Source of the DNA: Parcubacteria group bacterium Gr01-1014_33
Lineage (GTDB): Bacteria; Patescibacteriota; Minisyncoccia; Sungbacterales; HO2-52-23
NCBI GenBank assembly: GCA_007376125.1
Contig: VMFQ01000012.1
Span: forward strand, 1 to 49,672
Direction of reading: 5' to 3'
DNA: 49,672 nucleotides
The position numbers and the translations under genes were made by a program. The notes below the pieces were generated by a model, which worked only from the letters and a program-made list of their open reading frames with translations, ran no database searches and was not told the origin of the DNA. Positions within the stretch are counted from its first letter, which is position 1, and the number at the start of each line of letters is the position of its first letter. This document shows, one piece after another, positions 12,944 through 42,463 of this stretch.

Positions 12944-12963
12944 ATGTGTCATCCCCGTAACTT

Positions 12964-13462: not shown

Positions 13463-13480
13463 CTCCTTAACTCCTGATCC

Positions 13481-15389: not shown

Positions 15390-15392
15390 AGA

Positions 15393-15481
15393 TTAGGAAG
15401 TAGATGGTAGGAAGTAGGAAGTAGTAAAAAGCGGAAGGGAGGGTTTTATACTACTACCTACTACCTAATTCTTCTACTACC
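15393..15481. repeat. Low-complexity imperfect palindrome (AGGAAGT / ACTACCT words)
   Basis: taggaagtagatggtaggaagtaggaagtagta ... tactactacctactacctaattcttctactacc. The right arm overlaps the stop of the dehydrogenase gene. Confidence 0.55.
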
Positions 15482-17161: not shown

Positions 17162-17263
17162 GAATCATGAATTAGGAATCATGAATTAGGAATTTTAAAT
17201 ACTTCTTTTCTGTATTCTATCCCTGATTCATAATTCCTTATTCCTTATTCCTTATTTCATGAT
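17162..17263. repeat. Low-complexity imperfect palindrome (GAATTAGGAAT / ATTCCTTATTC words)
   Basis: gaatcatgaattaggaatcatgaattaggaat ... attcataattccttattccttattccttatttcatgat. Confidence 0.55.
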
Positions 17264-18429: not shown

Positions 18430-18456
18430 TATAGGTAAGTAGTCCCTCGCCGCCCT

Positions 18457-18572
18457 GTCATTGCGAGGATTTTCGTGCGGATTTCGTACAAAAATCCGCG
18501 GCAATCCCACTCTCCGAGGTTTTAGATTGCGGAGTTTATCCTGAGTCTTGCGAAGGACCCGCTCGCAATGAC
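18457..18572. repeat. Palindromic repeat with GTCATTGCGAG ... CTCGCAATGAC termini (copy 1)
   Basis: Termini read directly. Internal GGCAATCCC and a trailing GTGAGAGGTTAC are shared with the copy at 47574-47675. Confidence 0.7.
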
Positions 18573-19930: not shown

Positions 19931-21280
19931 TTACGCGGGCGATGAGAGCGCATCAATGAGAATTCTTGCAACTCGCTTGCCGGCGCATCCGTCAAGCGCT
20001 CCGCATTGCTCTCGGACGAGCCGCGCTCTTTCAACGCGATGAAATTTGGGATTTTCTAAATAACGCCCGATCCAGTCAATAAGTTCTTCTTTTGTGCTGA
20101 CCAATTGAATCGCTCCGGTAGCAAGAACCGGTTGGTAATGATCCACTTTATAAAATTCAGCGGTGGGACGACAGTCCGGAAAATCTATTTTTAAGTTAAT
20201 AATCGGCGTATCAAACATCGCGGCATCAATACTCATCGTAGACGCATAACTTACCACTACCGAAGAATAACATAAAGTATCGGCGAGTGACTGAAAATCT
20301 TCAAAACTCATATCCCAATCCGTTCCTCGTTCAAGCGAGAAGCGTTTTCCCGGCATCTGGAAAATGACATCCGCGCAGTCGGGGGGCGCCGTTATTCTGT
20401 CATTTGGCGGGAAACGGACAAAGAGTTTTACATGGTATGAAAATAAATTTTTTTTAACTATGCCCGCAAGAAGCGCAATAATGCGCAAATCCGCATCACT
20501 TGCCGCAGTACCCGCCGGACAAAAAAGTATAATGCGTTCGTTCTCGCCAATTCCGTACTGCCGGTAAAATTCCGCTTTGGGAGTGCGCAGGGTATTTAGA
20601 TAATAATCAAAATGAGGAATCCCCGTTACATAAATGCGCGCCGGAGCCATATCCGCATGCGTTATTGCGTCCCTTTTTACAATCTCATTATGCACAATCA
20701 TCTCGTTGGGAAGGAGACGCACCATGGAGCGCGCCGTCAACTTATCCCACGAATTGATAAGTCCAATGGTTTTTATGTTGCGTCTTTTTGCTTCACGCAA
20801 GATTACAATCTCTCTATCGCTAAAAAGGTGGGCAAGCAATACGAGTGAGGGATTATAGCGCGCAAAGTAAGGAGCAAGGTAGTGCTCATGCACTATGCGA
20901 TAATCAAGCCAGCGCACTATCTTTCGCACGGTACGACGCGCAAAAATCCGATTAAAGACAATCTTGAAGAAAAATTTTGGATAATTGCCCGACTCTCTCA
21001 ACTCCCAGATTCTTTTGAGATCTATCGTGGACGAGCGAATGAGATTAAATTTGAGAAATCTAAAAAGGGGGCCGAAGAAACCGGGGGTATATTCCTCCAC
21101 TACTTCATACACTACATTTGGCGCTTGAAATTCGCTTTCATAATGCTCTTTTTTTGCGTTACTGTCGGTAAAAAAAACTACACGGATGTCGGGATGGCGT
21201 ATCAGTTCTTTATACACATCCGTACGGACAATGTTGCGAAATTCTATTGCTTGGAAAAGCGAAATGAAAATAGTTTTCAT
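19931..21280 (-). CDS. Uncharacterised GT-B-like transferase, paralog P1 (weak TagF/CDP- or CMP-donor transferase resemblance)
   Basis: 449 aa. ILFCPAGTAASD, VKLFVRFPPND and CYSSVVVSYASTMSIDAAMFDTPIINL parallel the TagF-type YAPT / HP / DYSS...P motifs. It is a paralog of 23733-25079. Confidence 0.4.
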   Translation of the reverse strand: MKTIFISLFQAIEFRNIVRTDVYKELIRHPDIRVVFFTDSNAKKEHYESEFQAPNVVYEVVEEYTPGFFGPLFRFLKFNLIRSSTIDLKRIWELRESGNYPKFFFKIVFNRIFARRTVRKIVRWLDYRIVHEHYLAPYFARYNPSLVLLAHLFSDREIVILREAKRRNIKTIGLINSWDKLTARSMVRLLPNEMIVHNEIVKRDAITHADMAPARIYVTGIPHFDYYLNTLRTPKAEFYRQYGIGENERIILFCPAGTAASDADLRIIALLAGIVKKNLFSYHVKLFVRFPPNDRITAPPDCADVIFQMPGKRFSLERGTDWDMSFEDFQSLADTLCYSSVVVSYASTMSIDAAMFDTPIINLKIDFPDCRPTAEFYKVDHYQPVLATGAIQLVSTKEELIDWIGRYLENPKFHRVERARLVREQCGALDGCAGKRVARILIDALSSPA

Positions 21281-22221
21281 ACGGTTGATCTTAATCCTCC
21301 GCAGAAATCCTGAAGATCCCCCGCATCATACCGAGGAATTAAATAGGGCAAATCCCCTTTCCTTACTCCTCGGCGTTCAATCGTAACCGCATAGCGAAAT
21401 CCTTCTTCTTGAAGAACTTTATGCGCCATCTCGTCTGCCCGGCCATGCGGATAAGAAAATACAGGAGAAATCTCTTCGCATATGCCTGACAAAATCTCTT
21501 TTGCGCGTTCCACATCGTCCCGTACCTCACTTTCTTGCTTCTCATACAAAGGGGCGTGCGCATAAGAATGCGACCCGATAGCCATTCCGCTTTTTTGGAT
21601 TTCTCTTATTTCCTCTTTTTTCATAAAAAGCATCTGGTTCAACGCTTTGGGCTCTTTTTGAGAGCGCGAAAGAGCAGTTCCCAGAAATGCGGTTTGAAGA
21701 TCTCCCGGGATCTGCATAAGAGTTTCTTTGAAATTTGCAGTAAGAATATCTTCGTGCATCCGCTTGGAAGTAAGCCGGTGATCGGAGGGAATGGGATACT
21801 CGTCTTTTTGGGAAGGGAATTCGGCGGCAACCACTTCTTGAAAAGTACGCACAAGTGAAGACACCGATTCAGACGACATAAGAACATGAAGCGCATGCGC
21901 GGCAGGGAGCGCGCCTTCACACACACAGCCGATAATAAAAAAAGTTCCCCGAGCGCCGTATTTTTTCAAAATCGGAAATGCATTATCGTATTGGTCTTTC
22001 AAGCCGTCATCAAACGTCAAGGCGCAATAACTCCTTTTCTCCTCATTCTCCGCCGCAGATACCACCTCTTCTACAGAGACGATTTTATACCGCTCGGAAA
22101 GAAATTCTATTTGGCGCCGAAACTCATCTACCGGACACGGAAAAATCCCCGAAAGTGAGGAGTCAGGATCTCTTACATAATGATAGTTAACTATTATATA
22201 GCGCTCATTCGGAGAAAACAT
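21277..22221 (-). CDS. Polysaccharide deacetylase (NodB homology, CE4)
   Basis: ALTFDDGLKDQYDNAFPILKKYGARGTFFI, with GSHSYAH further downstream. Confidence 0.8.
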   Translation of the reverse strand: MFSPNERYIIVNYHYVRDPDSSLSGIFPCPVDEFRRQIEFLSERYKIVSVEEVVSAAENEEKRSYCALTFDDGLKDQYDNAFPILKKYGARGTFFIIGCVCEGALPAAHALHVLMSSESVSSLVRTFQEVVAAEFPSQKDEYPIPSDHRLTSKRMHEDILTANFKETLMQIPGDLQTAFLGTALSRSQKEPKALNQMLFMKKEEIREIQKSGMAIGSHSYAHAPLYEKQESEVRDDVERAKEILSGICEEISPVFSYPHGRADEMAHKVLQEEGFRYAVTIERRGVRKGDLPYLIPRYDAGDLQDFCGGLRSTV

Positions 22222-22244
22222 ATGTGTGCTTCAATTTATAACGC

Positions 22245-23561
22245 TTACTTTTGCCCCAAAGTAACCCCTTCTCCGCGCGATCCAGGAAAAAGACGCGCTG
22301 CCTGTTCTTGAAGATGAATACCAAGCTCGTCTTGCACTATTTTTTCAATATGCCTGCCCAAAAGCGATAGAGAGCGAAGGGAAGGATATTTTTTGTCAAA
22401 AGGGATCACAAATTCTTTGTTTCCTTGAAATTTTTGCACGGCGCTCCTCTTGTCCTCTTTCCTCCGAATACATACGCCGTAGAGCATCCGCCATACAATA
22501 TGGAGGCGCATGCGGCGTATGAGATTCAAAAAAGGCCAGAGAAACATATATTTTTTCGCTCGTGCGGCAAGAACTTTTTGATACCCCGCATTGAGCGTTT
22601 TGAGGAACGCAAAAAGCTCTTTCCAATTGCGAAGTGCGGCTACTACGCCGGTATCAAGATAGAAAAGTTCCGAAACGTACTGCTCCGCAAAACGTTCATA
22701 GCCAATGGGAATATCACCGAGAAGATCGGGAAGAAGTTTTTTCGTGCGAAGATAATTTTCAAGTATCCCGTTCATACGCGTATATCCCTTTACGGGGCTC
22801 AATTGCGCTATAAATGGTCTTTTTTTAAAACGCGCGCGCGCGGCAGTAGACCAGATTTGACTCATTGAAACTCCGAGACGCCCCACAATAACCATCGGGA
22901 TATCAACGAAAAAAGAAGACTTGGCAAACGCAAAGAGGATTGGCTGCAGCGAATGGATATTGGGCATCTCGGCAATCATGACAAACCCGAGGCGTGCAAA
23001 TGCCCGTTCAAGAATTTGGCGCGAAAATACGGTTGCCGAAAAATGAAAACGCGGATATTTCTGACCGGGACCCCGCCGGGAAAATCCGAAAATTTCGCGG
23101 AGTGCCGATGAGAGATCAATCGCTTGCACACTGCCGTTCCAAGGCACTACTCCCACGCTATTTCGCAAAAATAGGCGCGGATGCCGGTCGTCATAATAAT
23201 AAAAATGGCTTGCGGTGATTACCTCTGCCGAAGTATTGCGGATCGTCCGATCAAAAAGATCAAGCGCAAAAGGCAGGAGAAAATTATCATCATCACACCA
23301 CATCACATACTCGCCCGTGGCCTGTCGTGCGGCAAAATCCCATGTAATCAAAGGAGGACTTTTGGGAGATTCTACATAGCGCACGCGTGCATCGTCCGAA
23401 TACAGTGTTGCTTCTTTTGCCTCTTCCGATCCGCTTGAATCCACCACGATAAGTTCAAAATCCCGAAACGTTTGCGTGAGTACAGATTCCACCGCCATGC
23501 GAATGAGATGGGCGCGCCCGGAAGTCGGTATCAGAATTGAAAATCGAGGAGGTTTAGTCAT
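22245..23561 (-). CDS. Glycosyltransferase family 2 with extended C-terminal region
   Basis: Start is MTKPPRFSILIPTSGRAHLIRMAVESVLTQTFRDFELIVVDSSG at 23561, and WCDDDN is a DxD-type motif. Confidence 0.75.
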   Translation of the reverse strand: MTKPPRFSILIPTSGRAHLIRMAVESVLTQTFRDFELIVVDSSGSEEAKEATLYSDDARVRYVESPKSPPLITWDFAARQATGEYVMWCDDDNFLLPFALDLFDRTIRNTSAEVITASHFYYYDDRHPRLFLRNSVGVVPWNGSVQAIDLSSALREIFGFSRRGPGQKYPRFHFSATVFSRQILERAFARLGFVMIAEMPNIHSLQPILFAFAKSSFFVDIPMVIVGRLGVSMSQIWSTAARARFKKRPFIAQLSPVKGYTRMNGILENYLRTKKLLPDLLGDIPIGYERFAEQYVSELFYLDTGVVAALRNWKELFAFLKTLNAGYQKVLAARAKKYMFLWPFLNLIRRMRLHIVWRMLYGVCIRRKEDKRSAVQKFQGNKEFVIPFDKKYPSLRSLSLLGRHIEKIVQDELGIHLQEQAARLFPGSRGEGVTLGQK

Positions 23562-23576
23562 ATTATAGAAAAAACA

Positions 23577-23720
23577 AAATCCGAAATCCAAATATCGAAA
23601 TCCGAAACAAATTCAAATGTTCAAAATTCAAATGACCAAAACGGGGATGGATTCGTTTTGAATTTTGGACATTCGAATTTAGATATTGTTTCGAATTTCG
23701 TGCTTCGTGCTTAGGATTTT
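23577..23720. repeat. ~145-bp low-complexity palindrome (AAATCCGAAAT / ATTTCGGATTT words), copy 1
   Basis: The arms are imperfect reverse complements. The left end aaaatccgaaatccaaatatcgaaatccgaaacaa is nearly identical to 25871-25905. Confidence 0.7.
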
Positions 23721-23732
23721 TTTCACAGCACA

Positions 23733-25079
23733 TTATGCATTTCCCACATATGATAAAAGTATTCTTGCAAGCCGTTCCGTTGCCATGCCATCCCTACGGT
23801 ACGCTTGCTCCCGAACGATACGCTCTCTTCCCGCGAAATCGCAAGTAGGATCATTGAGATATTTCTTCACATGTGAAGCGCATTCATCGGCGCCTCGGGC
23901 AAGCTTCACTCCCCCGCTTTCAAGAATCGGCTGCCAATGATTGTAATCAAAATACCGCCGTATACTCTCAAAGTATGGTCGTTCCTCATACCCGTCAAAT
24001 CCCACAAGAATTACAGGTGTATCAAAAAAGGCGGCATCAATACAAATCGTGGAAGGTCCGCATACTACGAGATCGCTCCAATGGAGCGTATCAGCCAGAT
24101 GCATATCATTGTCTCTAGTAAGCTCCTCGTTTGTTCCCGCTTGCTCCTGCCGTCCCCGCGGTTTATCAAAAAGAATTCTTCCTTCGTTTTGCCTATACTT
24201 ACCTTGCAAGAACGAAACGTGATCATCAGGCGGATAGCGGACAAGAATTTGATATTGAGGGGGAAGCGTTTGGTCAAGAATTTGCAGTACATCCCGATCT
24301 ACCGTATTGGAAGAAAGATAGCGATCTCCTACTGGCGCAAAAAGGATAAGAGGACGTTGAGAATCTCCCCCAATACGGGAGAAAAACGATTCGCGGGCGG
24401 CACGCGATTCCTTTTGATAACGATCATAGTGAGGAATGCCTACGATATGTACACGCTCCTCGGGAATGTGATGAAGCGTTACCGCTTCTTTTGCCTGAAT
24501 CTCATTTTGCACAATGAGTATATCCGGAATAATTTGCAAAAGTCCTTTTGTGGTCAAAGTATCCCACGAGCGTACCATTCCGATTACAAGGATGCCCAGG
24601 TCGCGCGCCGCATGGCACATACGCACATCATATTCATTTTGAATATCTGTTGAAAAAACCAACCCGGGACTATATCGCGCAAGAAGCTCCGAGAAAGGAA
24701 ATCGCGGGACGAGAAGTGAACTTAATGTGCGTACCACCCGCTGCCCGAACGACATACTAAAAATAAATGAAAGGAAAAATGCGCTCGACCACTTCAACTC
24801 CGTGCGCCACTTAATATCGAGCGAGCGCGTGTTGATGCTCGCGAGCGCCAAAGTGCGCAGCCAAAAATCTCTCCACTCAAGACGTTCTTTTACTCCTTCG
24901 GTCTGGACGCATCCCTTCAGCTCATCTTGGAAAAATTTTTGCTTATCGCCAGGAACCAGCGCTATCGGTCTGACTCCGCGGGCACGCAAGATTTCAAGAA
25001 GTTCGGTACTGAAAATATTGCGTAAAATCAGAGGGTGAAAGCTCGTAATAAAAATTGTTTTGGGAGTACCATGAGCCAT
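23733..25079 (-). CDS. Uncharacterised GT-B-like transferase, paralog P2
   Basis: 448 aa, MAHGTPKTIFITSFHPLILRNIF. ILFAPVGDRYLS, ILVRYPPDDH and HWSDLVVCGPSTICIDAAFFDTPVILVGF are present. Confidence 0.4.
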   Translation of the reverse strand: MAHGTPKTIFITSFHPLILRNIFSTELLEILRARGVRPIALVPGDKQKFFQDELKGCVQTEGVKERLEWRDFWLRTLALASINTRSLDIKWRTELKWSSAFFLSFIFSMSFGQRVVRTLSSLLVPRFPFSELLARYSPGLVFSTDIQNEYDVRMCHAARDLGILVIGMVRSWDTLTTKGLLQIIPDILIVQNEIQAKEAVTLHHIPEERVHIVGIPHYDRYQKESRAARESFFSRIGGDSQRPLILFAPVGDRYLSSNTVDRDVLQILDQTLPPQYQILVRYPPDDHVSFLQGKYRQNEGRILFDKPRGRQEQAGTNEELTRDNDMHLADTLHWSDLVVCGPSTICIDAAFFDTPVILVGFDGYEERPYFESIRRYFDYNHWQPILESGGVKLARGADECASHVKKYLNDPTCDFAGRERIVREQAYRRDGMATERLARILLSYVGNA

Positions 25080-25089
25080 GCAGTCTCCT

Positions 25090-25860
25090 TCACATTTTGC
25101 GGGCTACGGCCCGAGGCGGACTCGCCTTTCGGGCGAAACATTCCATACTATTGCCCCAGAATGGGAAATTAGTTTTTCGTTTCAGACGGAAAAGTCGAAG
25201 GATAAATGCAGTTATGTCGTGCGCCGGACGCGCATACGGAATTCCCCAGTATGGATAGATAAAGATAATTTCACTAAAACCAAAATTAGTGAGAATCTGG
25301 CGGAGCATCTTATCAGAAGGCAAAAGAAAATTGAGATGTTCTTTGATAAAAGGAAGATCTTGAAAAAGTCGGTATACAATTCCGTGGGTATTGGGCGTCG
25401 CAAGAAAAATCAAACTTCCTCCTGGCTTCAGCCAATAATAGCACTCGCTGATCTTCATTATGGGATCAGGGATGTGTTGAATCGTGCCGCGAAACACCAC
25501 TGCATCAAAAAAATTATCCTCTGGATCAAAGTGAGTCGTAACCCCGCGGGATTCGGCAATGACGCGCGCATGATCCGAAAGTTCAATTCCAAATTTTTCC
25601 CATTGCTCACCCCAAAGCGATAAAAATTCTCCCCGCCCGCATCCCACATCAAGCACACTGCCTCCTTTTGCAAAGGTGGGAATATATTTTTTTATGCGCT
25701 CCATTTCTTGGGCATACATTTTCTCGCGCTTTGCCTCCTCTCGCCGGTAATCCTCTCCTCCTCCGCCCGAGCGATTTTCAAAGTATTGCGGTCCGTACAA
25801 GTCCTCCAGTCGGCGCAGTGTTTCCTCGCGCACACCAAATAGTTTTTGATTGTATCGCAT
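25090..25860 (-). CDS. Class I SAM-dependent methyltransferase
   Basis: Start is MRYNQKLFG at 25860. VLDVGCGRGEFL is motif I. Confidence 0.75.
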   Translation of the reverse strand: MRYNQKLFGVREETLRRLEDLYGPQYFENRSGGGGEDYRREEAKREKMYAQEMERIKKYIPTFAKGGSVLDVGCGRGEFLSLWGEQWEKFGIELSDHARVIAESRGVTTHFDPEDNFFDAVVFRGTIQHIPDPIMKISECYYWLKPGGSLIFLATPNTHGIVYRLFQDLPFIKEHLNFLLPSDKMLRQILTNFGFSEIIFIYPYWGIPYARPAHDITAFILRLFRLKRKTNFPFWGNSMECFARKASPPRAVARKM

Positions 25861-25870
25861 ACGATTCAGA

Positions 25871-26026
25871 AAAATCCGAAATCCGAATATCGAAATTCGA
25901 AACAATATCTAAACTCAAATTTCCTAAATTCAAAACATAGCTTCGATAGACTCACTACAGGTTTTGAACATTTGGATTTTGATAATTGGAATTTGTTTCG
26001 GATTTCGGATTTCGTGCTTCGGATTT
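25871..26026. repeat. ~155-bp low-complexity palindrome, copy 2 of the 23577 family
   Basis: aaaatccgaaatccgaatatcgaaattcgaaacaat ... atttgtttcggatttcggatttcgtgcttcggattt. Confidence 0.7.
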
Positions 26027-26098
26027 AGTCCGAGAATGTATTCCTTAGACGAGCTCAGGAAATACTTACTCTATAATTCAGAAATATAGCTTGGATAC

Positions 26099-34343: not shown

Positions 34344-35159
34344 TCACCACGCGGTCCACCCTCCATCAACAATAAGATTTGCTCCTGTCATATAGCGGGA
34401 CGCATCAGACAAAAGAAAAAGAATTGCGCCGTTGTAGTCGTCTTTTTCTCCCATACGGCCAAGCATGGTGCGCTCGCTATATTTTTTCACAAAAAGAGGA
34501 TCTTGGGCATTTTCTACTCCGCCAAGAGTCAAGGTGTTCACACGCACGCCAAAGCGCGCAAGATATGAAGCAAGTTCGCGGGTAAAATTGGGAAGGGCGC
34601 CTTTTGTAACCGCGTATGCAATAGATCCGAATCGGCCCACCGGATAAATTTGACTGTCGTGCGCCACCTCGCCATACACCGAGCCGATATTGACGATAAC
34701 ACCCGAACGCTGTTTTTTCATAACACGAATAATTACTTGAGTTACAATAAATGTTCCGGTAAGTCCCGTGTCAACCGCCGCTTTCCAGAGATCCAACGGA
34801 TATTCTTCATACGGACTAAACTGCTCGGCTGATTCTTTTTTGGCGGGCGAATACGTCAATGCGGCATTGTTGACTAACGCATCAATGCGGCCCCATCGTT
34901 TCAGAACCGCCGCAATTACTTTTCGTACGCCTTCTTGATCAGTAATATCCTGCGAATAGACATCAATGTTTTTACGGAGACGCAGAGGAAGCGCATGAAC
35001 TTTCTGTTCGAGCTTCGGCTGCCCCAACGCATCTATGATCGCGACTTTCGCACCGGCTGTGGCAAAAAATTCCACATAGCGCATTCCTAAAAAGCCGGCT
35101 CCACCGGTAATGAGGATTATTTTATTTTTTACCGAAAAAATTTGTTCGGATGTGTTCAC
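34344..35159 (-). CDS. SDR family oxidoreductase
   Basis: The GTG at 35159 gives (M)NTSEQIFSVKNKIILITGGAGFLGMRY, parallel to the paralog 45735-46562. NNAA and YAVTK (YxxxK) are present. Confidence 0.75.
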   Translation of the reverse strand: MNTSEQIFSVKNKIILITGGAGFLGMRYVEFFATAGAKVAIIDALGQPKLEQKVHALPLRLRKNIDVYSQDITDQEGVRKVIAAVLKRWGRIDALVNNAALTYSPAKKESAEQFSPYEEYPLDLWKAAVDTGLTGTFIVTQVIIRVMKKQRSGVIVNIGSVYGEVAHDSQIYPVGRFGSIAYAVTKGALPNFTRELASYLARFGVRVNTLTLGGVENAQDPLFVKKYSERTMLGRMGEKDDYNGAILFLLSDASRYMTGANLIVDGGWTAW

Positions 35160-35281
35160 CCGGTTAGAAATAGGACGCAGACGCAAAAAGCGCCTTGCAT
35201 ACTATGGTATTATTTGGCATTGACTTTTGTATGTATATCATATTTTTCAAGTATGCGTTCGCGATTTCTAACGGGGTTCAT
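35160..35281 (-). repeat. Stop-to-start intercistronic element, copy B (diverged)
   Basis: sORF MNPVRNRERILEKYDIHTKVNAK (35281-35210) starts 6 nt after the aminotransferase TAG, behind AGGAAAG. The 3' TIR ATTTCTAAC (35171-35163) is followed by CGG-GTG (35159). Confidence 0.65.
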
Positions 35282-35287
35282 ACTTTC

Positions 35288-36388
35288 CTATTTCAAAACT
35301 TTTTTAATACGATCACTTATCAGCGCAATATCTTTTTCTTCAAGATTTGCTCCGCTCGGAAGAATAAGACCAGTGCGCGCAAGCCGCCGCGCGTGAGGAA
35401 AGTGTCCGTGCTGTCGCATGTAAGGTAAATCGCTCATCGGCAAGAAAAATGGACGGGTATCTACCCCGCTCTCTCTTAAATGAAGCGCGAGTTTTGGTAC
35501 GGATTTTGTGCGAAATCTCATGGCATTCACCCACCATGAAGGTTGGGATCCGGGCGTTTCTTCTTGCAGTGTAACGATTCCTCGCTCCACCAATGGTTCA
35601 AGGTATGCCTCATACCAGCCGCGAATTTTGCGCTTCCGTTCTAAAAGTTCCTTGATCCGCTCAAGCTGTCCCAACCCAAGCGCCGCCTGCAAATTAGTCA
35701 TCCGATAATTATACCCCATTACAGGATGATAGTATTTCCGGGCATTGGACGGCTGGGCTTGATTTTTTAGTAGCGCTACGCGCGCGGCAATTGATTTGGA
35801 ATTTGTTACCACCATTCCTCCCTCGCCTGTCGTAATTGTCTTGTTGCCGAAAAAACTAAATGAATTGGCAACCCCGAAACTTCCCACCATTTTATTTTTA
35901 TAGAAAGCCCCATGCGCTTCAGCCGCATCCTCAATCACCATAAGACGGTGTTGCCGCGCGATCCGCATAATCTCTTCCATTCTGCAGGGGTTTCCATATA
36001 GATGAACAGGCATGATCGCTTTCGTCCGCGGGGTAATACGTTCTTCAATACGCCCCACATCAATATTAAACGTAGATTCCTCACAATCCACGAAAACAGG
36101 GGCCGCGCCCACATAGAGCACCGCATTTGCGGATGCCGCATACGTAAAATTAGGCACGATAACTTCGTCACCCTTTCCAATGCCAAGGCTAAGCATCACG
36201 AGATGCAAACTCACTGTTCCGTTACACGTGGTACGCGCGTACCGAACTCCTACATATCGGGCAAATGTCTCCTCAAATTTTCCGATATATTTTCCCCACG
36301 AACTCACCCATCCGGATTCCATGCAATCTAGAACATACTCTTTCTCGCGGGAGCCAATAACCGGTTCAAGCACTGGATATGTTTTCAT
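35288..36388 (-). CDS. pseC: DegT/DnrJ/EryC1/StrS PLP-dependent sugar aminotransferase (PseC/LegC-like)
   Basis: CNGTVSLHLVMLSLGIGKGDEVIVPNFTYAASANAV and SFFGNKTITTGEGGMV (catalytic Lys). Confidence 0.75.
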   Translation of the reverse strand: MKTYPVLEPVIGSREKEYVLDCMESGWVSSWGKYIGKFEETFARYVGVRYARTTCNGTVSLHLVMLSLGIGKGDEVIVPNFTYAASANAVLYVGAAPVFVDCEESTFNIDVGRIEERITPRTKAIMPVHLYGNPCRMEEIMRIARQHRLMVIEDAAEAHGAFYKNKMVGSFGVANSFSFFGNKTITTGEGGMVVTNSKSIAARVALLKNQAQPSNARKYYHPVMGYNYRMTNLQAALGLGQLERIKELLERKRKIRGWYEAYLEPLVERGIVTLQEETPGSQPSWWVNAMRFRTKSVPKLALHLRESGVDTRPFFLPMSDLPYMRQHGHFPHARRLARTGLILPSGANLEEKDIALISDRIKKVLK

Positions 36389-36419
36389 TTGTATTTAGAA
36401 CCTGTTCACAATCTTCCCC

Positions 36420-36509
36420 CTACCTGAAAATGCATGTTTTTGGCTGCAAAACTTCGTCTCGCACTCATCGTAATACCATTACGCTTCGCGCTCCGACTGT
36501 ACTCGCTCA
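36420..36509. repeat. Conserved box plus 51-bp core (inverted orientation)
   Basis: The box is at 36420-36442 and the core at 36458-36508 (see 30519-30591). It is followed by the GGAAAC-TCG-GTTTCC palindrome at 36526-36540. Confidence 0.85.
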
Positions 36510-36552
36510 CCCCGACTTTCTACTTGGAAACTCGGTTTCCACGTGAGATGTA

Positions 36553-37908
36553 TCAATACTCAAAACGAAATTCCGGCGGCCCTCCCGGCGGAAGCGCACC
36601 ACGTTCTTTCCAAAAGCGATACGAGGAAATGGCATGATCAAGCACGGCATTGGCCTCGCGCGCTTCTTTTTCAGTCATCAGACGCACCTCTGTAAATCCC
36701 CGCCCACAACGGATTTTTTCCGGTTCATCAATCTCTGCGGCGTATAAAATTACATCGCCATCGGTCGTAAGGGTATATCCGGACTCGGCAAAACGCGAGT
36801 CCGGCCAAAAGTGTCGCGCCCCGCCAATACAGAAAAATTGATCACGGCCAACCACAATACCAAAATCCTCTTTCACCAATTCTTGCGCACGATCTTGGTA
36901 TGGAAGAAAATGTCGTGACCTACCGCCGGCAAACCACCAAAATCCCCTTGCCGGCCGTTCTCTTCTTTTCCCTACGAGAAATTTTTCGCTTCCGTCCTTC
37001 ATCCGAACCGCAAGCAATACGTCCACATACTTCACAGTGAGGTTCTCCGCGCATACTCTGAAATGTTCCTCGGCAATCCAGCCATTTCCTTGATCTTTAC
37101 TTTGATGCGAACGATGGAGAATCTGCCCAATTTCCTTAAGAATATTGTTACTGACCAAACTGTACGCCTCGCCCGCAACTTCAAGAGTCGCGCCCTCATA
37201 AGGAGGATACCAAAACGCTCTTGCTTTGCGCTCCACCGTTTCCGGCGAATCTTCAGGCGCTACGCGGCGTAAACGCTCAAATTCTTTTTTGTCAATATAC
37301 CTTCCCTTGCCCTGCGGAGAGACATCCCACTTCTTCCCCGCAAGAGCTTCATCCATCACACGCATAAAAAGGGTAAGTAAATATCCTTGGCTCTTTTGCT
37401 CTAAAGAAAAAGCGGTTTCTGTTTCCGGCGATATGGAAAAACGATCCACGGCAATAATGTCACCCGTATCAAAATCTTCGGAAACAAAATGAGCGGAAAC
37501 TCCCCACGAAGGAAGATTTTCAAGAATTGCAATGGTATATCCGCCTACACCGCGAAAATCAGGCAATGGCGCGGGATGAAAATTAATGCATCCTTTTTTT
37601 CCCACCTCAATCAATGACTTTCTTATCTTCTCCCAGAAAAGAAACGATATTACAAAATCAATATCCCGAACACACCCGGCAAGTTCGGGCCGAGACGGAT
37701 TATGAGGATCAGCAATACATTGATAGAGTTCTTTACTCGTAAGAAGCGGAATCCCATGAGTGCGCGCCGCATCGCTCAATTTCGGCGACCAATGGAGCGC
37801 CTCTTCATCCGGAGGCGCAACAACTCCGGTCACGGTACCGCCGTTTGCCAAAAGATATTCCAGAGCCCTCACTGAACCTGGTTTTTTTCCAAGAAACAAT
37901 ACGCGCAT
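36553..37908 (-). CDS. Formyltransferase (Fmt/ArnA-N-like, N- and C-domains) fused to a NUDIX (GDP-mannose mannosyl hydrolase-like) domain
   Basis: The N-terminus has MRVLFLGKKPGS...INFHPAPLPDFRGVGG...SAHFVSEDFDTGDII. The C-terminal ~150 aa has FLVGKRRERPARGFWWFAGGRSRHFLPYQDRAQELVKEDFGI, resembling GxRxxxPAxxxWxxPGGR...E..EE.G. Confidence 0.6.
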   Translation of the reverse strand: MRVLFLGKKPGSVRALEYLLANGGTVTGVVAPPDEEALHWSPKLSDAARTHGIPLLTSKELYQCIADPHNPSRPELAGCVRDIDFVISFLFWEKIRKSLIEVGKKGCINFHPAPLPDFRGVGGYTIAILENLPSWGVSAHFVSEDFDTGDIIAVDRFSISPETETAFSLEQKSQGYLLTLFMRVMDEALAGKKWDVSPQGKGRYIDKKEFERLRRVAPEDSPETVERKARAFWYPPYEGATLEVAGEAYSLVSNNILKEIGQILHRSHQSKDQGNGWIAEEHFRVCAENLTVKYVDVLLAVRMKDGSEKFLVGKRRERPARGFWWFAGGRSRHFLPYQDRAQELVKEDFGIVVGRDQFFCIGGARHFWPDSRFAESGYTLTTDGDVILYAAEIDEPEKIRCGRGFTEVRLMTEKEAREANAVLDHAISSYRFWKERGALPPGGPPEFRFEY

Positions 37909-37951
37909 GTTTTCGGTTTTTGAGCATGACCTTACGCCTTTTAAGTCATTA

Positions 37952-37980
37952 CGGAGAAACGATTGGCAATCGTTTCTCCG
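37952..37980. repeat. Perfect 13-bp-stem palindrome CGGAGAAACGATT-GGC-AATCGTTTCTCCG (copy 2)
   Basis: Read directly. It is the reverse orientation of 6344-6370. Confidence 0.7.
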
Positions 37981-38107
37981 TATAATTTCTCAAGAACTAT
38001 ACGGGGTACACTCATGCGTTGCAATCTCAACTCATACAATATCAGATTGCCACGCGCTTTGAGGACTCGCAATGGGAAAAAATGATGTTTTTTCAAACAC
38101 ATACGTC

Positions 38108-38833
38108 TTACTTTTTCTCAAGATAACGCCTCATAACCAATTCCGCAATCTCAAGATCAATTTCCTCATTGATATCCCACGACCGTTCCTTGGGAATTTC
38201 AATGTACCCTGTCGGATCTGCAAGATACATTGAACTCGCTTCACGCACCTGCTTCGCACTTACCAACTCAATGACTGCATTGAGTTGGACAAAGTCCCGC
38301 GGAAGGAGTTGGCGCTGATAGTAGGTTGCAATATCTTTTCCCGGAATGAGGGGCTGTAATGCGCCATTTACCGTTTGATACATCCAATACGGATGGTTTT
38401 CGGCTTCCACCACCGTTACACTCCGTACCACATCATAATTTCCTTGATCTGCCGTTTCAATAATCCGCGCAATATCATCCGCAGTCCGAAACGGCGTTGT
38501 GGGACGAAGATTTAACACATACTCATAGCGCTCGCCCTCCTTCTCTAAAAAATCAAGGGCGTGACGGAATACCGGCCCGTCAGGAGTTCGGTCCTCGGCA
38601 AGTTCTGGAGGACGCATACACGGCACCTCCATCCCCCATTGCCGCGCAATATCCGCGATCTCTCTGTCATCCGTGGAAACAATGAGACGATCAATAAGCG
38701 GTGATTCGCGAGCAGAAAAGAACGCATACGCAATAAGCGGCTTTCCACACAGCATTCTCACGTTCTTGCGCGCCACCCGTTTCGACCCGCCTCGCGCAGG
38801 AATGATTCCTAAAATTTTTTTCCCTTGATACAT
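38108..38833 (-). CDS. neuA: Acylneuraminate (NulO) cytidylyltransferase
   Basis: Start is MYQGKKILGIIPARGGSKRVARKNVRMLCGKPLIAYAF...DRLIVSTDDREIA at 38833. GAGGAGG lies upstream. Confidence 0.8.
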   Translation of the reverse strand: MYQGKKILGIIPARGGSKRVARKNVRMLCGKPLIAYAFFSARESPLIDRLIVSTDDREIADIARQWGMEVPCMRPPELAEDRTPDGPVFRHALDFLEKEGERYEYVLNLRPTTPFRTADDIARIIETADQGNYDVVRSVTVVEAENHPYWMYQTVNGALQPLIPGKDIATYYQRQLLPRDFVQLNAVIELVSAKQVREASSMYLADPTGYIEIPKERSWDINEEIDLEIAELVMRRYLEKK

Positions 38834-38957
38834 ACTCACCAATCGCCTCCTCAATAATGTGATACAAAATATAACGCCCTCCATTCGTCAAAGGTTTTAC
38901 CTATTATACCGATTTATCGATAAAAAAACATTTTTTGCGGACAATAATTTCTACACG

Positions 38958-38986
38958 TTTACAGAAAATTTTTTTCGCGGTATAGT
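38958..38986 (+). promoter_or_regulatory. Sigma70-like promoter predicting a leaderless mRNA for the TylF-like gene
   Basis: TTTACA-17 nt-TATAGT-6 nt-ATG (38993). Confidence 0.5.
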
Positions 38987-38992
38987 ATTTCC

Positions 38993-39697
38993 ATGACAAC
39001 ACTTCTTAAAAAGATCCGGGCGCGCGCGGGAAATGGAATTCAGACGGTTCTTTCTTCTGCGGGGTGGGAACTACGGAGACGATCAGAGCGGCATACCACA
39101 CCCATGACCCTTGAAGCTTTAAGCGGGTTTCTTTACTTTGTACGGCGTTTTGCCGAGATCCGTTTGCTACAAGGCGATATTGTGGAATGCGGCGTAGGAC
39201 GCGGCAAAAGTTTTCTTTGCCTTGCGTTTCTTGCCGCAGAAGAAAATGCGGGCCGCATGCTGTGGGGTTTTGATAGTTTCGCGGGCTTCCCCGATCCCAC
39301 TCCGGAAGATAAAAGTCCGCGAAATCCCCAGCAAGGAGAGAAAATCTCCAAAAAAGAAGATGTAGTATGGATGCTTCGCGATGCACACTTGGGAGATGAT
39401 TTTGTAAAAAATTACGTGCGATTTGTCCCTGGGTTTTTCAACGATACGCTTCCCCACTATACCGGCAACAATATTGCCCTTCTCCATATTGACGGAGATT
39501 TATACCGCTCCTACAAAGACACGCTTGACACCCTTTATTCAAGAGTGGTGCCGGGCGGACTTATTCTTTTTGACGAGTACAATACAGTGCAGTTTCCCGG
39601 AGCAACAAAGGCGGTAAATGAATTCTTTTCCGGAAAAGGGGTTGAGATTAAACACGATAGACTTTCTGAAAAATATTATTGCGTTAAACCACAGTAG
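38993..39697 (+). CDS. TylF/MycF-type (macrocin O-methyltransferase family) SAM-dependent methyltransferase
   Basis: GDIVECGVGRGKSFLCLAF and LHIDGDLYRSYKDTLDTLYSRVVPGGLILFDEY. Confidence 0.75.
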   Translation: MTTLLKKIRARAGNGIQTVLSSAGWELRRRSERHTTPMTLEALSGFLYFVRRFAEIRLLQGDIVECGVGRGKSFLCLAFLAAEENAGRMLWGFDSFAGFPDPTPEDKSPRNPQQGEKISKKEDVVWMLRDAHLGDDFVKNYVRFVPGFFNDTLPHYTGNNIALLHIDGDLYRSYKDTLDTLYSRVVPGGLILFDEYNTVQFPGATKAVNEFFSGKGVEIKHDRLSEKYYCVKPQ

Positions 39698-39723
39698 GAA
39701 ATTGCTGCCAAATGTTGCTTCTT

Positions 39724-39792
39724 GTCATTGCGAACAGAGCGAAGCAATCTTATATTCCGAGGCGGAGATTGCCGCGCTACGCTCGCAATGAC
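39724..39792. repeat. GTCATTGCGA ... CTCGCAATGAC palindromic repeat (copy 2)
   Basis: gtcattgcgaacagagcgaagcaatc...gagattgccgcgctacgctcgcaatgac, between convergent genes. Confidence 0.7.
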
Positions 39793-39810
39793 AGAGACTT
39801 CCAGACTTAC

Positions 39811-41193
39811 TTAAGAGTTTCCAATAATTTTCCCAATCGCATTCACTGCTCTTTTGTACGACAAGCCATCGGAAAATGGCGCCCACTCGCTTGCAACACT
39901 TCTTCTCTCTTTGCGGTCCAGCGCGGGATTTTCGAGATATTGATTAACAAGCGTACAAAGTTGTTCCGGTGTATCTGCGAGACGCTCTACGCCTCTTTCA
40001 AGGAGTACTTTATTATTCTCAAGTTCATAAATGCGCCGCGGTATTTCGGGGAATCCCATTCCCACAATCGGTTTATCAAAAAGGGCGGCCTCTACCACTA
40101 TCGTGGAGGCATGGCATACCACCACATCGCAATAAAGAAACGTGGCGGTCATATTCACCATATCATTCTTATCCATTTCCACTTTATATTCCGGAGTTTC
40201 CTCATCCCCTCTAACGACGCGCCCTGATCGTTCAATGTGAAGACCCGGAATATCCATATATTCCCGATACGGTCCTATCACATCTATAGGATGAAGACGC
40301 ACAAAAATATTAGGATCACCCATGAGAAGCTTTTCGCGCTTCAGACGCACAAGCGTGCGAAGAAATTCTCCTCGCATTTTATAGATCCCCGGAGTCGGAG
40401 TAGCCCAAAGAATTGTTTTTTTTGAGGGGTCAAGCCCTTTACTTTCGAGAAACGCATCGCGTGAAGGTATACGATTATATTTTCTATCATTGATATAATG
40501 ATCATACCGAAGACACCCTGTCACTAGTACGCGCTCCTCCGGATAATGCATCACCCGTTCAATCTCTCTCTTCATCACATGATTCCAGGCAAAAATATAA
40601 TCCGGAAGGCGAGTTGTTTTTGATTTGGAGTAGGGAAAATCATGATTAAACTCAACTGCAACTGTGGGGATACCAACATGTTTTGCGAATATTATTACCT
40701 CGGCCTCAAGAGCGCTCGTACCGGTTGCCGCGGTGAGAATGAGGCGCGGCTGGTACTTTTCTACTAATTCACGAAACTCCCGTGAAGGACGCGCGATACA
40801 CTTTTCAATACGAGTATAGCGCCGAACAGTAAGAAGGCGCGCCGGGATAAAACTTCCTATAATCATCAAGATCCGATGCCAGCGATTGGGAATACGACCA
40901 TAATCAAGAATCTGTATTGTGGCGAGACTATCGTGCTCACGAATAAAATAGAGCCGGATGTATCGGCTCACGGTATCCCAAAGCCATGCATAGCGAACGT
41001 GGATCGGCTGATAGATAGTGTTTTGATTTACATAATACCCCTGCCACTTCGCCTCCTCTTCATCAATCCAGCGCGTAAGAACTACGACGCGGTATTCTTT
41101 TGCCAAGTGCGGAAAAAACTCACTCCGAAGGACATCGGATAAATGACCATACTTCTCAAGCACAAGAAAAACAGTATTGAGAGGTGAGTTCAT
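39811..41193 (-). CDS. Uncharacterised GT-B-like transferase, paralog P4
   Basis: 460 aa, closely similar to P3 along its length (RPSREFRELVEKYQPRLIL versus RPSPEFSALVKNYRPRLML). ILWATPTPG, FVRLHPIDV and LYCDVVVCHASTIVVEAALFDKPIVGMGF are present. Confidence 0.4.
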   Translation of the reverse strand: MNSPLNTVFLVLEKYGHLSDVLRSEFFPHLAKEYRVVVLTRWIDEEEAKWQGYYVNQNTIYQPIHVRYAWLWDTVSRYIRLYFIREHDSLATIQILDYGRIPNRWHRILMIIGSFIPARLLTVRRYTRIEKCIARPSREFRELVEKYQPRLILTAATGTSALEAEVIIFAKHVGIPTVAVEFNHDFPYSKSKTTRLPDYIFAWNHVMKREIERVMHYPEERVLVTGCLRYDHYINDRKYNRIPSRDAFLESKGLDPSKKTILWATPTPGIYKMRGEFLRTLVRLKREKLLMGDPNIFVRLHPIDVIGPYREYMDIPGLHIERSGRVVRGDEETPEYKVEMDKNDMVNMTATFLYCDVVVCHASTIVVEAALFDKPIVGMGFPEIPRRIYELENNKVLLERGVERLADTPEQLCTLVNQYLENPALDRKERRSVASEWAPFSDGLSYKRAVNAIGKIIGNS

Positions 41194-41302
41194 CCTGTTA
41201 GAAGTTCCACCCCCGCCATGCTACGGCGTGGCGAAAACGATTGTTAATTATTTCCGTGCATAGCATAGCATAATCCCCGCGGGAATTTCTAACGGGATTC
41301 AT
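41194..41302 (-). repeat. Stop-to-start intercistronic element, copy D (divergent; the sORF spans the whole element)
   Basis: An ATG at 41302 overlaps the neuB-like TGA (ATGA). The sORF is MNPVRNSRGDYAMLCTEIINNRFRHAVAWRGWNF. Its TAA (41200-41198) lies inside the 3' TIR, 4 nt before the P4 ATG (41193). The TIRs are GTTAGAAATTCC and GGAACTTCTAAC. Confidence 0.65.
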
Positions 41303-42246
41303 TTTCTTCGAAGCTTCTTGAGAATGGGAATCTCGGATTCATACACGCGCTTGATGCCGTCTCCTTTTGCTATTTCAAAATGCCGGATATATTTCACAAG
41401 TTGCGCAAGACCGTGCGGCTCAAGCGAGGCGGCCTGATCCGACCCCCACATCGCCCGATCAAGGGTAATGTGTCGTTCCACCATACAGGCGCCAAGAACC
41501 GCTGCCGCCAAAGAAGAAGAAATTCCCACTTCATGTCCGCTGTATCCAATCGGAATATACGGAAATCTTTTTTGCAGAGTGTGAATAACAGAGAGATTTA
41601 ATTCATGCGCTTCGGAAGGGTATGTGGAGGTACAATGCAGAATTACACAATTTTCCGCTCCTATACCCTCTACCGCATGTTCTATTTGCCCCATGGTACT
41701 CATGCCGGTTGAGAGAATAATCGGCCGTCCTTTTGAACGGATATACCTCAAAAGCCCATCATCAGTCAAACTTGCGGAAGCAACTTTATAGCATGGCGGA
41801 TTAAACTCTTCAAGAAAATCAACGCTTTCCTCGTCCCACGGCGAGGCAAACCACAGTATCTTTTTTTCTTTGCAGTACTCATCAATTGCCTCATACTCTT
41901 TTTTGGTGAGTTCGAGCGCCCATTTCTGATCTTCATTTCTTGTATCAATGAAATTGGATGTTGTCAGACGCGCACGCGCATCTTCCGAAAGAACTCCGCG
42001 CTGAATTGCCGAAACAACGAGATGGGAAGGCACTTCGCGCGGTTTTATGCGTTCTTCTTCGCTATAGACAACCGGAATAGTCCGTTTTTGAAATTTGACG
42101 GCATCCGCTCCCGCGGCAACCGCCACATCAATAAGGCGGCGCGCAGTGTCAATGTCGCCGTTATGATTGATGCCTATCTCTGCTACGACAAAGCATGGCT
42201 TGCCCGGACCTACTTCACGATCCCCGATTTTAATGGTTTGAGACAT
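41299..42246 (-). CDS. neuB: NeuB-family synthase lacking the C-terminal SAF domain
   Basis: The ATG at 42246 gives MSQTIKIGDREVGPGKPCFVVAEIGINHNGD. GADAVKFQKR and IGYSGHEVG...VLGACMVERHIT are present. The protein ends ~25 aa after the TIM barrel (...ESEIPILKKLRRK*). Confidence 0.75.
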   Translation of the reverse strand: MSQTIKIGDREVGPGKPCFVVAEIGINHNGDIDTARRLIDVAVAAGADAVKFQKRTIPVVYSEEERIKPREVPSHLVVSAIQRGVLSEDARARLTTSNFIDTRNEDQKWALELTKKEYEAIDEYCKEKKILWFASPWDEESVDFLEEFNPPCYKVASASLTDDGLLRYIRSKGRPIILSTGMSTMGQIEHAVEGIGAENCVILHCTSTYPSEAHELNLSVIHTLQKRFPYIPIGYSGHEVGISSSLAAAVLGACMVERHITLDRAMWGSDQAASLEPHGLAQLVKYIRHFEIAKGDGIKRVYESEIPILKKLRRK

Positions 42247-42250
42247 GATT

Positions 42251-42463
42251 GAAATTTTCAATTTACAATGAGAGTTACGCGTTTCATTCTTTCTGTCATT
42301 CCCAACTTGATTGGGAATCCAGTCTTTCTTTCATTCTTGATTCCCGCTTTCGCGGGAATGACATCAAACGCGTAAGTCCTAAATTCTTAAAATTACCAAT
42401 TTTCAAATTGAAAATTCAAGAATTGAAAATTTATTGAAAATTGTTTATTGAAAATTGAAAATT
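42251..42463. repeat. Composite palindrome: GAAAATT-word outer arms enclosing a GTCATTCCC...GGGAATGAC element (42295-42362)
   Basis: gaaattttcaatttacaat...(gtcattcccaacttgattgggaatcc...attcccgctttcgcgggaatgac)...ttgaaaattgtttattgaaaattgaaaatt. Confidence 0.65.

Follow-up and report, generated by a model that had tools for sequence, protein, structure and literature searches.

The contig analyzed here carries synthesis genes for nonulosonic acids (NulOs), and the question is which enzymes would transfer these in their cytidine monophosphate (CMP)-activated form. It spans the whole window (49,672 bp) and comes from a metagenome-assembled genome (MAG) of Parcubacteria group bacterium Gr01-1014_33. 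Transferases for pseudaminic acid (Pse), legionaminic acid (Leg), and related acids are far less known than the synthesis pathways, and the Pse/Leg-type transferases on record are only Maf/FlmG, KpsS1 (GT118), and the genetically defined enzymes of Tannerella forsythia. A first-pass annotation of the window had proposed four paralogous proteins of about 450 amino acids (aa), P1 to P4, as candidate novel CMP-NulO transferases. This candidacy is supported by homology to TagF, by a match to the family NF046086, by the GT-B glycosyltransferase fold, and by co-occurrence with NulO genes, and from sequences and structural models taken together we judge it probable that P1 to P4 are CMP-NulO transferases. 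The word novel holds for a distant new branch but not for a new enzyme class, for which the NF046086 enzymes of T. forsythia are the precedent.

Four paralogs on a TagF-type scaffold

P1 to P4 are true paralogs in two sub-pairs, and their similarity is far above chance. BLASTP gave 29% identity for P1/P2 (E 5e-61), 41% for P3/P4 (E 3e-114), and 23 to 27% for the cross pairs (E 1e-15 to 1e-29), confirming the four genes and their pairing as first annotated (Table 1), and a six-frame scan of the window with the family hidden Markov model (HMM) found these four members and no more. All relevant cluster genes lie on the minus strand. The start of P1 overlaps the stop of a CE4 deacetylase gene by 4 bp, with a GNAT gene 15 bp downstream of P1; P2 starts 10 bp after a methyltransferase gene (25090-25905); and P4 lies directly downstream of a NeuA/NeuB pair, as had been noticed at first pass, at a distance of 105 bp. 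An alternative mechanical TTG start of P3 at position 34214 would give 464 aa. In the deposited record, P1 and P4 carry the names G01um101433_317 and G01um101433_334 and are labeled hypothetical proteins; P0135, the top-scoring 457-aa representative in our searches, is probably the deposited P3.

The AlphaFold2 models of P1 (pLDDT 94.2, pTM 0.92) and P4 (pLDDT 95.6, pTM 0.93) both show a GT-B fold of two Rossmann domains, the N-terminal one of which contains an insertion of four helices. When these models were compared with the PDB by Foldseek, UDP-GlcNAc 2-epimerases came first, followed by MshA/BshA and MurG; for P4, TagF (3l7j) stood at rank 5 (E 2.4e-11), and TarL (8va1) and the TagF-like polymerase Cps3D (8qoy) were also matched, so that the structural check suggested at first pass returned the GT-B fold with TagF, TarL, and Cps3D among the top P4 matches. 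No sialyltransferase or KpsC/WbbB-type enzyme was among the top 50 Foldseek matches of either model. UDP-GlcNAc 2-epimerases, GT4 enzymes, MurG, and TagF all fall between E 1e-10 and 1e-14, with template modeling (TM) scores of 0.45 to 0.69; for these models, Foldseek confirms GT-B, without power to discriminate among GT-B families.

Such a ranking could also mean that P1 to P4 are GT-B nucleotide-sugar 2-epimerases or hydrolase-like enzymes of NulO precursor synthesis, as UDP-GlcNAc 2-epimerases, NeuC included, lead the Foldseek matches (1f6d, E 2e-14, TM 0.67) and weak PF02350/NeuC matches occur in P4 (E 0.0047) and in 9 and 5 of 100 family members. The TM scores of 0.5 to 0.67, however, reflect the shared GT-B fold only, the PF02350 score of P4 is 16.3 bits against a threshold of 30.6, and P3 matches NeuC at E 0.019. 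PF04464 and NF046086 are each matched by far more members than these models are, and the TarL-aligned motifs run through the entire C-terminal domain. The window moreover has a true NeuC of its own, as do 50 of the 80 related loci described below. With its matches below threshold, we rejected the epimerase alternative on sequence grounds and consider it very improbable.

Profile comparisons place the family more precisely. The threshold (22.1 bits) of PF04464, the cytidine diphosphate (CDP)-glycerol glycerophosphotransferase family, was exceeded by P1, P2, and P4, mostly through their C-terminal halves; it was not detected for P3 alone in the Pfam scan, and 94 of the 100 family members matched it at E <= 0.01. 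NF046086, the BFO_1060 family of glycosyltransferases, was the best NCBIfam match for all four proteins (E 4.7e-9 to 2.3e-23) and was matched by 99 of the 100 members (best E 3.2e-25), all under the membership cut-off. In the NCBIfam scan TIGR04396 was weakly matched by P3 (E 2.3e-9) and P4, and 15 members matched the TarF model. A four-sequence P1-P4 profile found only noise among PDB sequences; deeper family profiles reached TarL and Cps3D, the 100-sequence profile matching TarL 8va1 at E 2.3e-6 over profile positions 210 to 446. The TagF/TarL-type profile used for comparison holds 24 proteins, found in a search seeded with the TarL C-terminal domain that gave no full-length TarL but did yield fragments and, at about 368 aa, proteins of the TagB/TarL type. 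Because hhalign joined the family to this profile with 99.4% probability (E 1.7e-21, 260 columns), we conclude that the predicted CMP-binding half of the family is homologous to TagF/TarL.

The resemblance to TagF, called loose at first pass, is therefore real homology (PF04464 above threshold for three of the four proteins; hhalign 99.4%), and proteins for which no family could then be named are now placed on the PF04464 fold with NF046086 as the nearest named family. Nothing in these comparisons pointed with confidence to an unrelated function. None of the 100 members matched the Pfam models for GT38, GT42, GT52, GT80, KpsC/KpsS (Capsule_synth), or Maf (PF01973) at E <= 0.01, and no bacterial sialyltransferase Pfam family was found for P1 to P4 at E <= 0.1. 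The family is thus a TagF-fold GT-B group that is related, as a distant sister, to the NulO transferases of T. forsythia; judged by the defining features of TagF proper and of NF046086, it lies outside both.

The active-site motifs show what was kept and what was lost. The three C-terminal motifs that had drawn attention to these proteins occur in all four (ILF(C/A)P, IVYAT, or ILWAT; VR(F/Y/I/L)(P/H)P.D; and (S)(T)...(D/E)AA.FD.P(I/V)(I/V)). HMMER aligned all four C-terminal motifs of TagF/TarL in the family against TarL 8va1, including the C-terminal D-G-x-S-x-x-R to DGRSSER. Only the Asp of the S-W-D motif (D179 in P1, D185 in P4) and the Gly of G-x-P-x-x-D are fully invariant in the 100-member alignment; Arg289 of the V-R motif is conserved in 98% of members, and the H-P position holds His in 52% (P3, residue 304; P4, residue 301) and Pro in 34% (P1 and P2). 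Among the TagF/TarL-type proteins, W103-H104 and H236-P237 are invariant in 24 of 24, and the catalytic His of the TagF W-H motif is the residue mutated in the PDB entries for TagF (3l7j, H444N) and TarL (8va1, H300N). This His is not conserved in the P1-P4 family, no N-domain column of the 100-member alignment exceeding 44% His. In local, global, low-mact, and alternative hhalign runs the N-terminal alignment was of low confidence and paired a TagF strand with a family helix. The firm part is that the N-domain has no conserved His; we suspect that the S-W-D Asp replaces it, and from its conservation we propose this residue (D179 in P1) as the catalytic general base.

In the helical insertion (about residues 62 to 148) the net charge lies between +6 and +8, 12 to 16 residues are Phe, Trp, or Tyr, and no transmembrane segment is predicted in it for any of P1 to P4. 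It is likely a membrane- or acceptor-binding surface, and its basic, aromatic character fits an interfacial membrane enzyme.

Linkage to nonulosonic acid genes across Patescibacteria

We assembled 80 related loci (1.32 Mb), comprising 78 distinct loci from a genome scan and two contig look-ups (L001 and L002), all from Patescibacteria MAGs, with a few records under other taxon labels, and searched them with HMMs built from the NeuB, NeuA, and NeuC of the window; 35 had full flanks of 10 kb. NeuB, NeuA, or NeuC was found within 10 kb in 63 of the 80, and the full-flank loci contained at least one of the three in 30 of 35 cases and NeuB or NeuA in 28 (80 to 86%), which bears out the genomic co-occurrence expected at first pass. 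Family members stand 200 bp or less from a NulO gene in 29 cases, nearly always on the same strand. The loci hold 45 NeuB and 49 NeuA genes per Mb; judged against genomes in general, which carry no more than a few of these genes per Mb, this is a strong enrichment. Of the five full-flank loci without any of the three genes, one (L017) has its explanation in L083, where a NeuC-NeuA-dehydrogenase-EamA-NeuB cassette lies some 12 kb away from the P1-type gene.

The paralogs also travel together. At least two occur in 29 of the 35 full-flank loci, P1/P2-type and P3/P4-type members are found together in 32 of 80 loci, and P1-type and P2-type members in 40 of 80; the P1-, P2-, and P3/P4-type subfamilies are old and separately conserved. 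The first-pass annotation had remarked that the number of paralogs equals the number of NeuB/NeuA modules. This stands for the window, where HMMs from its own genes found four NeuB-like and four NeuA/PseF-like (PF02348) genes, but not elsewhere: the 4:4:4 count is no general one-transferase-per-sugar rule, because full-flank loci average 2.3 family members to 1.0 NeuB, and members outnumber NeuB in 27 of 35. Several transferases per NulO, for different acceptors or linkages or for oligo-NulO synthesis, are more likely than one transferase per sugar.

The family is large. At E <= 1e-3 the four-sequence profile matched 9,378 representatives, each standing for a cluster at 50% identity; tightening the limit to 1e-10 left 4,818 of them, and a limit of 1e-30 left 1,674. 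A scan of one genome per species gave 79 loci, nearly all labeled as Patescibacteria/Candidate Phyla Radiation MAGs, among which the P1-type subfamily is the commonest. The homologues are named in their sources as hypothetical or as CDP-glycerol glycerophosphotransferase family proteins. Some members are fused to a methyltransferase or a CE4 deacetylase (P0146), functions that are also encoded beside P2 and P1. Five proteins of about 900 aa (P0134, P0136, P0140, P0141, and P0148) carry two family modules in tandem, recalling dual-module KpsC and TagF-like capsule polymerases; tandem modules are compatible with the synthesis of alternating linkages.

Those source names correspond to the chief competing explanation, that P1 to P4 are TagF/TagB-like phosphotransferases moving glycerol phosphate, ribitol phosphate, or another phospho-linked group (e.g., a phosphonate or phosphocholine-type group) from a CDP or CMP donor to a glycan, with NulO proximity reflecting the clustering of surface-glycan genes. 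PF04464 scores above its gathering threshold, homology to TarL/TagF is clear, some members also match the TarF model, and several homologues bear the glycerophosphotransferase name at NCBI, but the W-H catalytic His of such enzymes is unconserved, the HP His is found in only about half of the members and not in P1 or P2, and the named family that fits best, NF046086, is one of NulO transferases and draws 99 of the 100 members where TarF draws 15. Paralogs exceed NeuB genes in most loci, and NTP_transferase, phosphoenolpyruvate (PEP) mutase, and acyl carrier protein (ACP)/AMP-ligase genes adjoin members in L083 and L001, both of which suit phosphotransfer; against this stand the NulO genes in 80 to 86% of full-flank loci and the negative searches for a source of CDP-polyol. 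No gene for CDP-glycerol or CDP-ribitol synthesis (TagD/TarD, TarI/TarJ) was found among the window open reading frames (ORFs) scanned, where all four cytidylyltransferases are NulO-type (PF02348 or PseF-like), nor were TagD/TarD or TarI/TarJ genes seen in five Pfam-annotated related contexts. The TagD-type motif G-x-F-D-x-x-H-x-G-H, admittedly a crude test, was absent from 82 loci and from the main minus-strand ORFs of the window. We regard phosphotransfer, whether by some or by all of the paralogs, as unlikely.

Several observations nevertheless weigh against CMP-NulO transfer. Glycan genes cluster generally, and nearness to NulO genes is by itself not enough to name the donor. Family members also exceed NeuB genes in number. 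In L001 (958-21353) and L083 (637-11814) family members lie beside the NTP_transferase, PEP mutase, and ACP/AMP-ligase genes just mentioned. The HP His is missing from P1 and P2, and the D/E-D/E-G motif reported for the T. forsythia enzyme Tanf_01245 is absent from P1 to P4 (no [DE][DE]G). Foldseek ranks UDP-GlcNAc 2-epimerases slightly above TagF, and NF046086 scores of 36 to 83 bits against a 200-bit cut-off mean that function is transferred across a long evolutionary distance, to a branch we know from sequences, models, and gene context. L001 and L083 also encode an ACP synthase and small carrier proteins, and there the family members are followed by a GNAT gene, like P1 in the window. Some paralogs may use another CMP- or CDP-linked donor, and these loci hint at subfamilies that work with different activated donors, or with acceptors bearing an acyl or phosphonate group.

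The window's glycan genes and a putative pathway

Our favored reading, CMP-NulO transfer, leads us to the following working model. P1 to P4 would be peripheral-membrane GT-B transferases on a TagF/TagB scaffold, using CMP-activated NulOs in place of the CDP-glycerol of TagF, with CMP leaving in both reactions. The C-terminal Rossmann domain keeps the TagF-type CMP-binding motifs (G-x-P-x-x-D, (K/R)-x-(H)-P, the S-S/T loop, the ribose acid, and D-G-x-S-x-x-R), while in the N-terminal domain, which has lost the TagF His, the family-specific invariant Asp (D179 in P1) would act as general base and the basic, aromatic four-helix insertion would dock the enzyme on the membrane or acceptor. The four paralogs probably add NulO at different positions or linkages of one glycan. 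This glycan would be begun on polyprenyl phosphate by Bac_transf, extended by the GT4 and GT2 enzymes, supplied with NulO residues by P1 to P4, trimmed or decorated by the CE4 deacetylase and methyltransferases, and finally transferred to a surface acceptor by the Wzy_C/TPR protein. GT4 and Bac_transf are the likely start of a lipid-linked glycan, the Wzy_C/TPR protein, with homologues in 14 of the 80 related loci, is likely the final ligase, and the window gene set makes a plausible complete lipid-linked route (Table 1).

Table 1. Positions in the window of P1 to P4, their motifs and insertion, and the NulO and other glycan genes around them
Feature	Position	Strand	Remarks
P1	19931-21280	-	449 aa; P1-type TagF-fold GT-B; PF04464 29.9 bits; NF046086 52.4 bits, E 4.4e-14
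P2	23733-25079	-	448 aa; paralog of P1; PF04464 35.1 bits; NF046086 35.8 bits, E 4.7e-9
P3	32820-34193	-	457 aa from ATG; P3/P4 subfamily, H-P motif; NF046086 77.8 bits, E 8e-22
P4	39811-41193	-	460 aa; paralog of P3; PF04464 34.9 bits; NF046086 82.9 bits, E 2.3e-23
S-W-D motif, P1 residues 177-179	20744-20752	-	Asp in 100/100 family members
S-W-D equivalent, P2	24561-24569	-	SWD
S-W-D equivalent, P3	33648-33656	-	SYD
S-W-D equivalent, P4	40639-40647	-	NHD
G-x-P-x-x-D motif, P1	20606-20623	-	GIPHFD; TagF/TarL counterpart GVPRTD; Gly 100%, Asp 99%
G-x-P-x-x-D equivalent, P2	24423-24440	-	
G-x-P-x-x-D equivalent, P3	33510-33527	-	
G-x-P-x-x-D equivalent, P4	40501-40518	-	
V-R-x-(H/P)-P-x-D motif, P1	20399-20419	-	VRFPPND; aligned to TarL FKMHP (phosphate-binding K/R-x-H-P)
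V-R-x-(H/P)-P-x-D equivalent, P2	24222-24242	-	Pro
V-R-x-(H/P)-P-x-D equivalent, P3	33294-33314	-	VRIHPHD
V-R-x-(H/P)-P-x-D equivalent, P4	40282-40302	-	VRLHPID
S-T-x-x-I-D-A-A-x-F-D-x-P-I-I motif, P1	20198-20242	-	aligned to TarL SSLIYEYAVFKKPMI (nucleotide-binding loop, ribose-binding acid)
S-T-x-x-I-D-A-A equivalent, P2	24009-24053	-	
S-T-x-x-I-D-A-A equivalent, P3	33075-33119	-	
S-T-x-x-I-D-A-A equivalent, P4	40063-40107	-	
Helical insertion, N-terminal Rossmann domain, P1 residues 62-135	20876-21097	-	AlphaFold2 helices
Helical insertion equivalent, P2	24690-24896	-	
Helical insertion equivalent, P3	33765-34013	-	
Helical insertion equivalent, P4	40750-40998	-	
NeuB-like NulO synthase 1	11148-12353	-	TIGR03569 E 1.9e-69
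EamA genes	13481-15389	-	
D-2-hydroxyacid dehydrogenase	15454-16449	-	
NeuA/PseF-like cytidylyltransferase	16442-17161	-	
NeuC	17257-18510	-	350.9 bits
NeuB-2	26099-27211	-	Pse-type module
SDR	27407-28333	-	Pse-type module
PseG-like	28423-29460	-	Pse-type module
PseB	29474-30472	-	Pse-type module
PF02348 cytidylyltransferase	30732-31496	-	Pse-type module
SDR	34344-35186	-	
LegC/PseC-type aminotransferase	35288-36388	-	
Formyltransferase with Nudix-like C-terminal half	36553-37908	-	
NeuA/PseF-like cytidylyltransferase 3	38108-38884	-	
NeuB-3	41299-42261	-	immediately upstream of P4
NeuA/PseF-like cytidylyltransferase 4	42468-43223	-	immediately upstream of P4
NeuB-4	48950-49672	-	incomplete at contig end
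GT4 glycosyltransferase	875-2098	+	
Bac_transf initiating phosphoglycosyl transferase	2077-3456	+	
770-aa membrane protein, Wzy_C + TPR	6409-8721	-	O-antigen ligase/O-oligosaccharyltransferase type
Type IV pilin-like gene	12395-13057	-	N_methyl motif (...DKG/FTLVELLVVISI...); between NeuB-1 and EamA genes
CE4 polysaccharide deacetylase	21277-22221	-	between P2 and P1
GT2 glycosyltransferase	22245-23591	-	between P2 and P1

The Wzy_C/TPR protein, of the O-antigen ligase or PglL/TfpO type, lies 3.7 kb from the pilin-like gene. Because that gene stands inside a NulO cassette with the putative ligase so close, the arrangement suggests pilin O-glycosylation with a NulO-containing glycan. P1 to P4 might even act on a pilin-like or S-layer protein directly, as CMP-NulO protein O-glycosyltransferases resembling Maf/FlmG on flagellins; the position of the pilin-like gene, the multiplicity of paralogs as in Maf families, and an insertion that could be a protein-binding module would all be in keeping with this. 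The window, however, holds the complete lipid-linked route just described, the acceptor of the T. forsythia relatives is a glycan (PMC5420450), and the family shows no resemblance to PF01973, the model for Maf. Moreover, TagF-type enzymes, as is well established, use membrane lipid-linked acceptors, and no pilin gene was detected in the 80 related loci, albeit by an insensitive search, the cassette of L083 having no gene between EamA and NeuB. We therefore hold direct protein glycosylation to be improbable. The single-sequence searches of the related loci found no pilin, PseG-like, DUF4910, or Bac_transf gene and four GNAT genes, and are too insensitive to establish absence.

The NulO genes of the window form a Pse-type set (PseB, a PseC/LegC-type aminotransferase, a PseG-like protein, and NeuB) and a NeuC-dependent Neu/Leg-type set, accompanied by modifying genes for a formyltransferase, a GNAT protein, three methyltransferases (one of them TylF-type), and a D-2-hydroxyacid dehydrogenase. 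The dehydrogenase, found in 32 of the 80 related loci, may supply a glyceroyl or lactoyl-type N-acyl group. The cassette of NeuC, NeuA, D-2-hydroxyacid dehydrogenase, EamA, and NeuB (11148-18510), in which the EamA transporter is an odd member of a NulO operon, recurs in the same order in L083 (15113-19990), another Patescibacteria contig. NeuB-3 is short (320 aa), its NeuB model match ending at 276 of 329, apparently without the C-terminal SAF domain, and NeuB genes of 323 to 335 aa without a SAF match also occur in L002 (6833-7804) and L003 (2597-3604). The formyltransferase/Nudix-like protein, 451 aa long and encoded between the aminotransferase and NeuA-3, weakly matches GDP-mannose mannosyl hydrolase in its C-terminal region and may catalyze a bifunctional N-formylating and hydrolyzing step for a Pse/Leg-type sugar.

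Other ORFs are less easily connected to the pathway. A DUF4910/DUF2172/HTH_47 (M28 aminopeptidase-like) protein (31517-32818, minus strand) starts directly after the P3 stop. The 139-aa product of the minus-strand ORF 10672-11091 has five tandem ATKEDL(K/N) repeats, the first four being ATKEDLKYF, then a predicted coiled-coil-like tail, and no family match. Neither Pfam nor NCBIfam matched two further minus-strand ORFs, 44550-45587 (345 aa) and 8854-9999 (381 aa). The former was found in 8 of the 80 related loci and so is probably a genuine cluster component; because it overlaps the mechanical TTG start of ORF 43271-44638 by 89 bp, that start is probably wrong.

Relation to known transferases

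If P1 to P4 are CMP-NulO transferases, thousands of sequences and two confident models would be added to a TagF-fold NulO transferase branch, a systematic misannotation as CDP-glycerol glycerophosphotransferase would be corrected, and a simple His-to-Asp change could separate glycosyl from phosphodiester transfer on the TagF scaffold. Four NulO pathways take up a 40-kb block in a Parcubacteria genome that is itself very small, and in the literature searched we found no paper linking Patescibacteria with nonulosonic acids. Surface NulO glycans could matter for the attachment of episymbionts to their hosts. Our results also lead us to entertain, as a possible though on balance doubtful extension, a phylum-wide, unclassified glycosyltransferase family of Patescibacteria (no fewer than 1,674 clusters at 50% identity, E <= 1e-30) in which a TagF scaffold became a NulO transferase by the His-to-Asp change; two to four subfamilies in series, sometimes fused in tandem, would build NulO-rich or oligo-NulO glycans that a Wzy_C-type ligase attaches to pili or other surface structures. 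If so, sialic-acid-like sugars would be a central, unrecognized surface feature of these small-genome episymbionts.

Among known systems, enzymes such as the pseudaminyltransferase KpsS1 (GT118) and the retaining KpsC, KpsS, WbbB, and KrkA (GT107, GT99, and GT140) use CMP-ulosonic acid donors on modified GT-B folds (PMC12887879). The P1-P4 family has no Capsule_synth match (E <= 0.01), and these enzymes are not in the top 50 Foldseek matches; P1 to P4 belong to a different GT-B branch.

CMP-NulO donors are also used by the classical sialyltransferases and by Maf, from which P1 to P4 differ in having no HMM match to GT38, GT42, GT52, GT80, or Maf and none of them in the top 50 by Foldseek. The GT-B families GT38, GT52, and GT80 combine an HP motif with Asp or Glu as general base, an arrangement analogous to the catalysis that we propose for P1 to P4.

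With TagF, TagB, TarL, TarF, and Cps3D (PF04464), the family shares the GT-B fold, the C-terminal CMP motifs, the predicted CMP leaving group, a putative peripheral-membrane location, and multi-module fusions. It departs from them in its unconserved W-H His, its partial HP His, its invariant Asp, and a gene context that would supply CMP-NulO without CDP-polyol.

The closest comparison is with T. forsythia, in which deletion of Tanf_01245 or TFUB4_00887, whose orthologue in strain 92A2 is BFO_1060, leaves the S-layer O-glycan without its terminal Pse or Leg derivative; the authors noted a TagB/GT-B-type domain in these transferases and described a conserved C-terminal region of Tanf_01245-type enzymes that holds a D/E-D/E-G and an HP motif (PMC5420450). 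Compared through the family model and this published description, P1 to P4 differ in scoring 36 to 83 bits against the 200-bit cut-off, in lacking D/E-D/E-G, in having HP only in P3 and P4, and in occurring as two to four co-located paralogs in Patescibacteria rather than as one gene in Bacteroidota. They nevertheless match this family best and, like its T. forsythia members, whose proposed donors are CMP-Pse and CMP-Leg derivatives, have NulO genes nearby and no predicted transmembrane segment.

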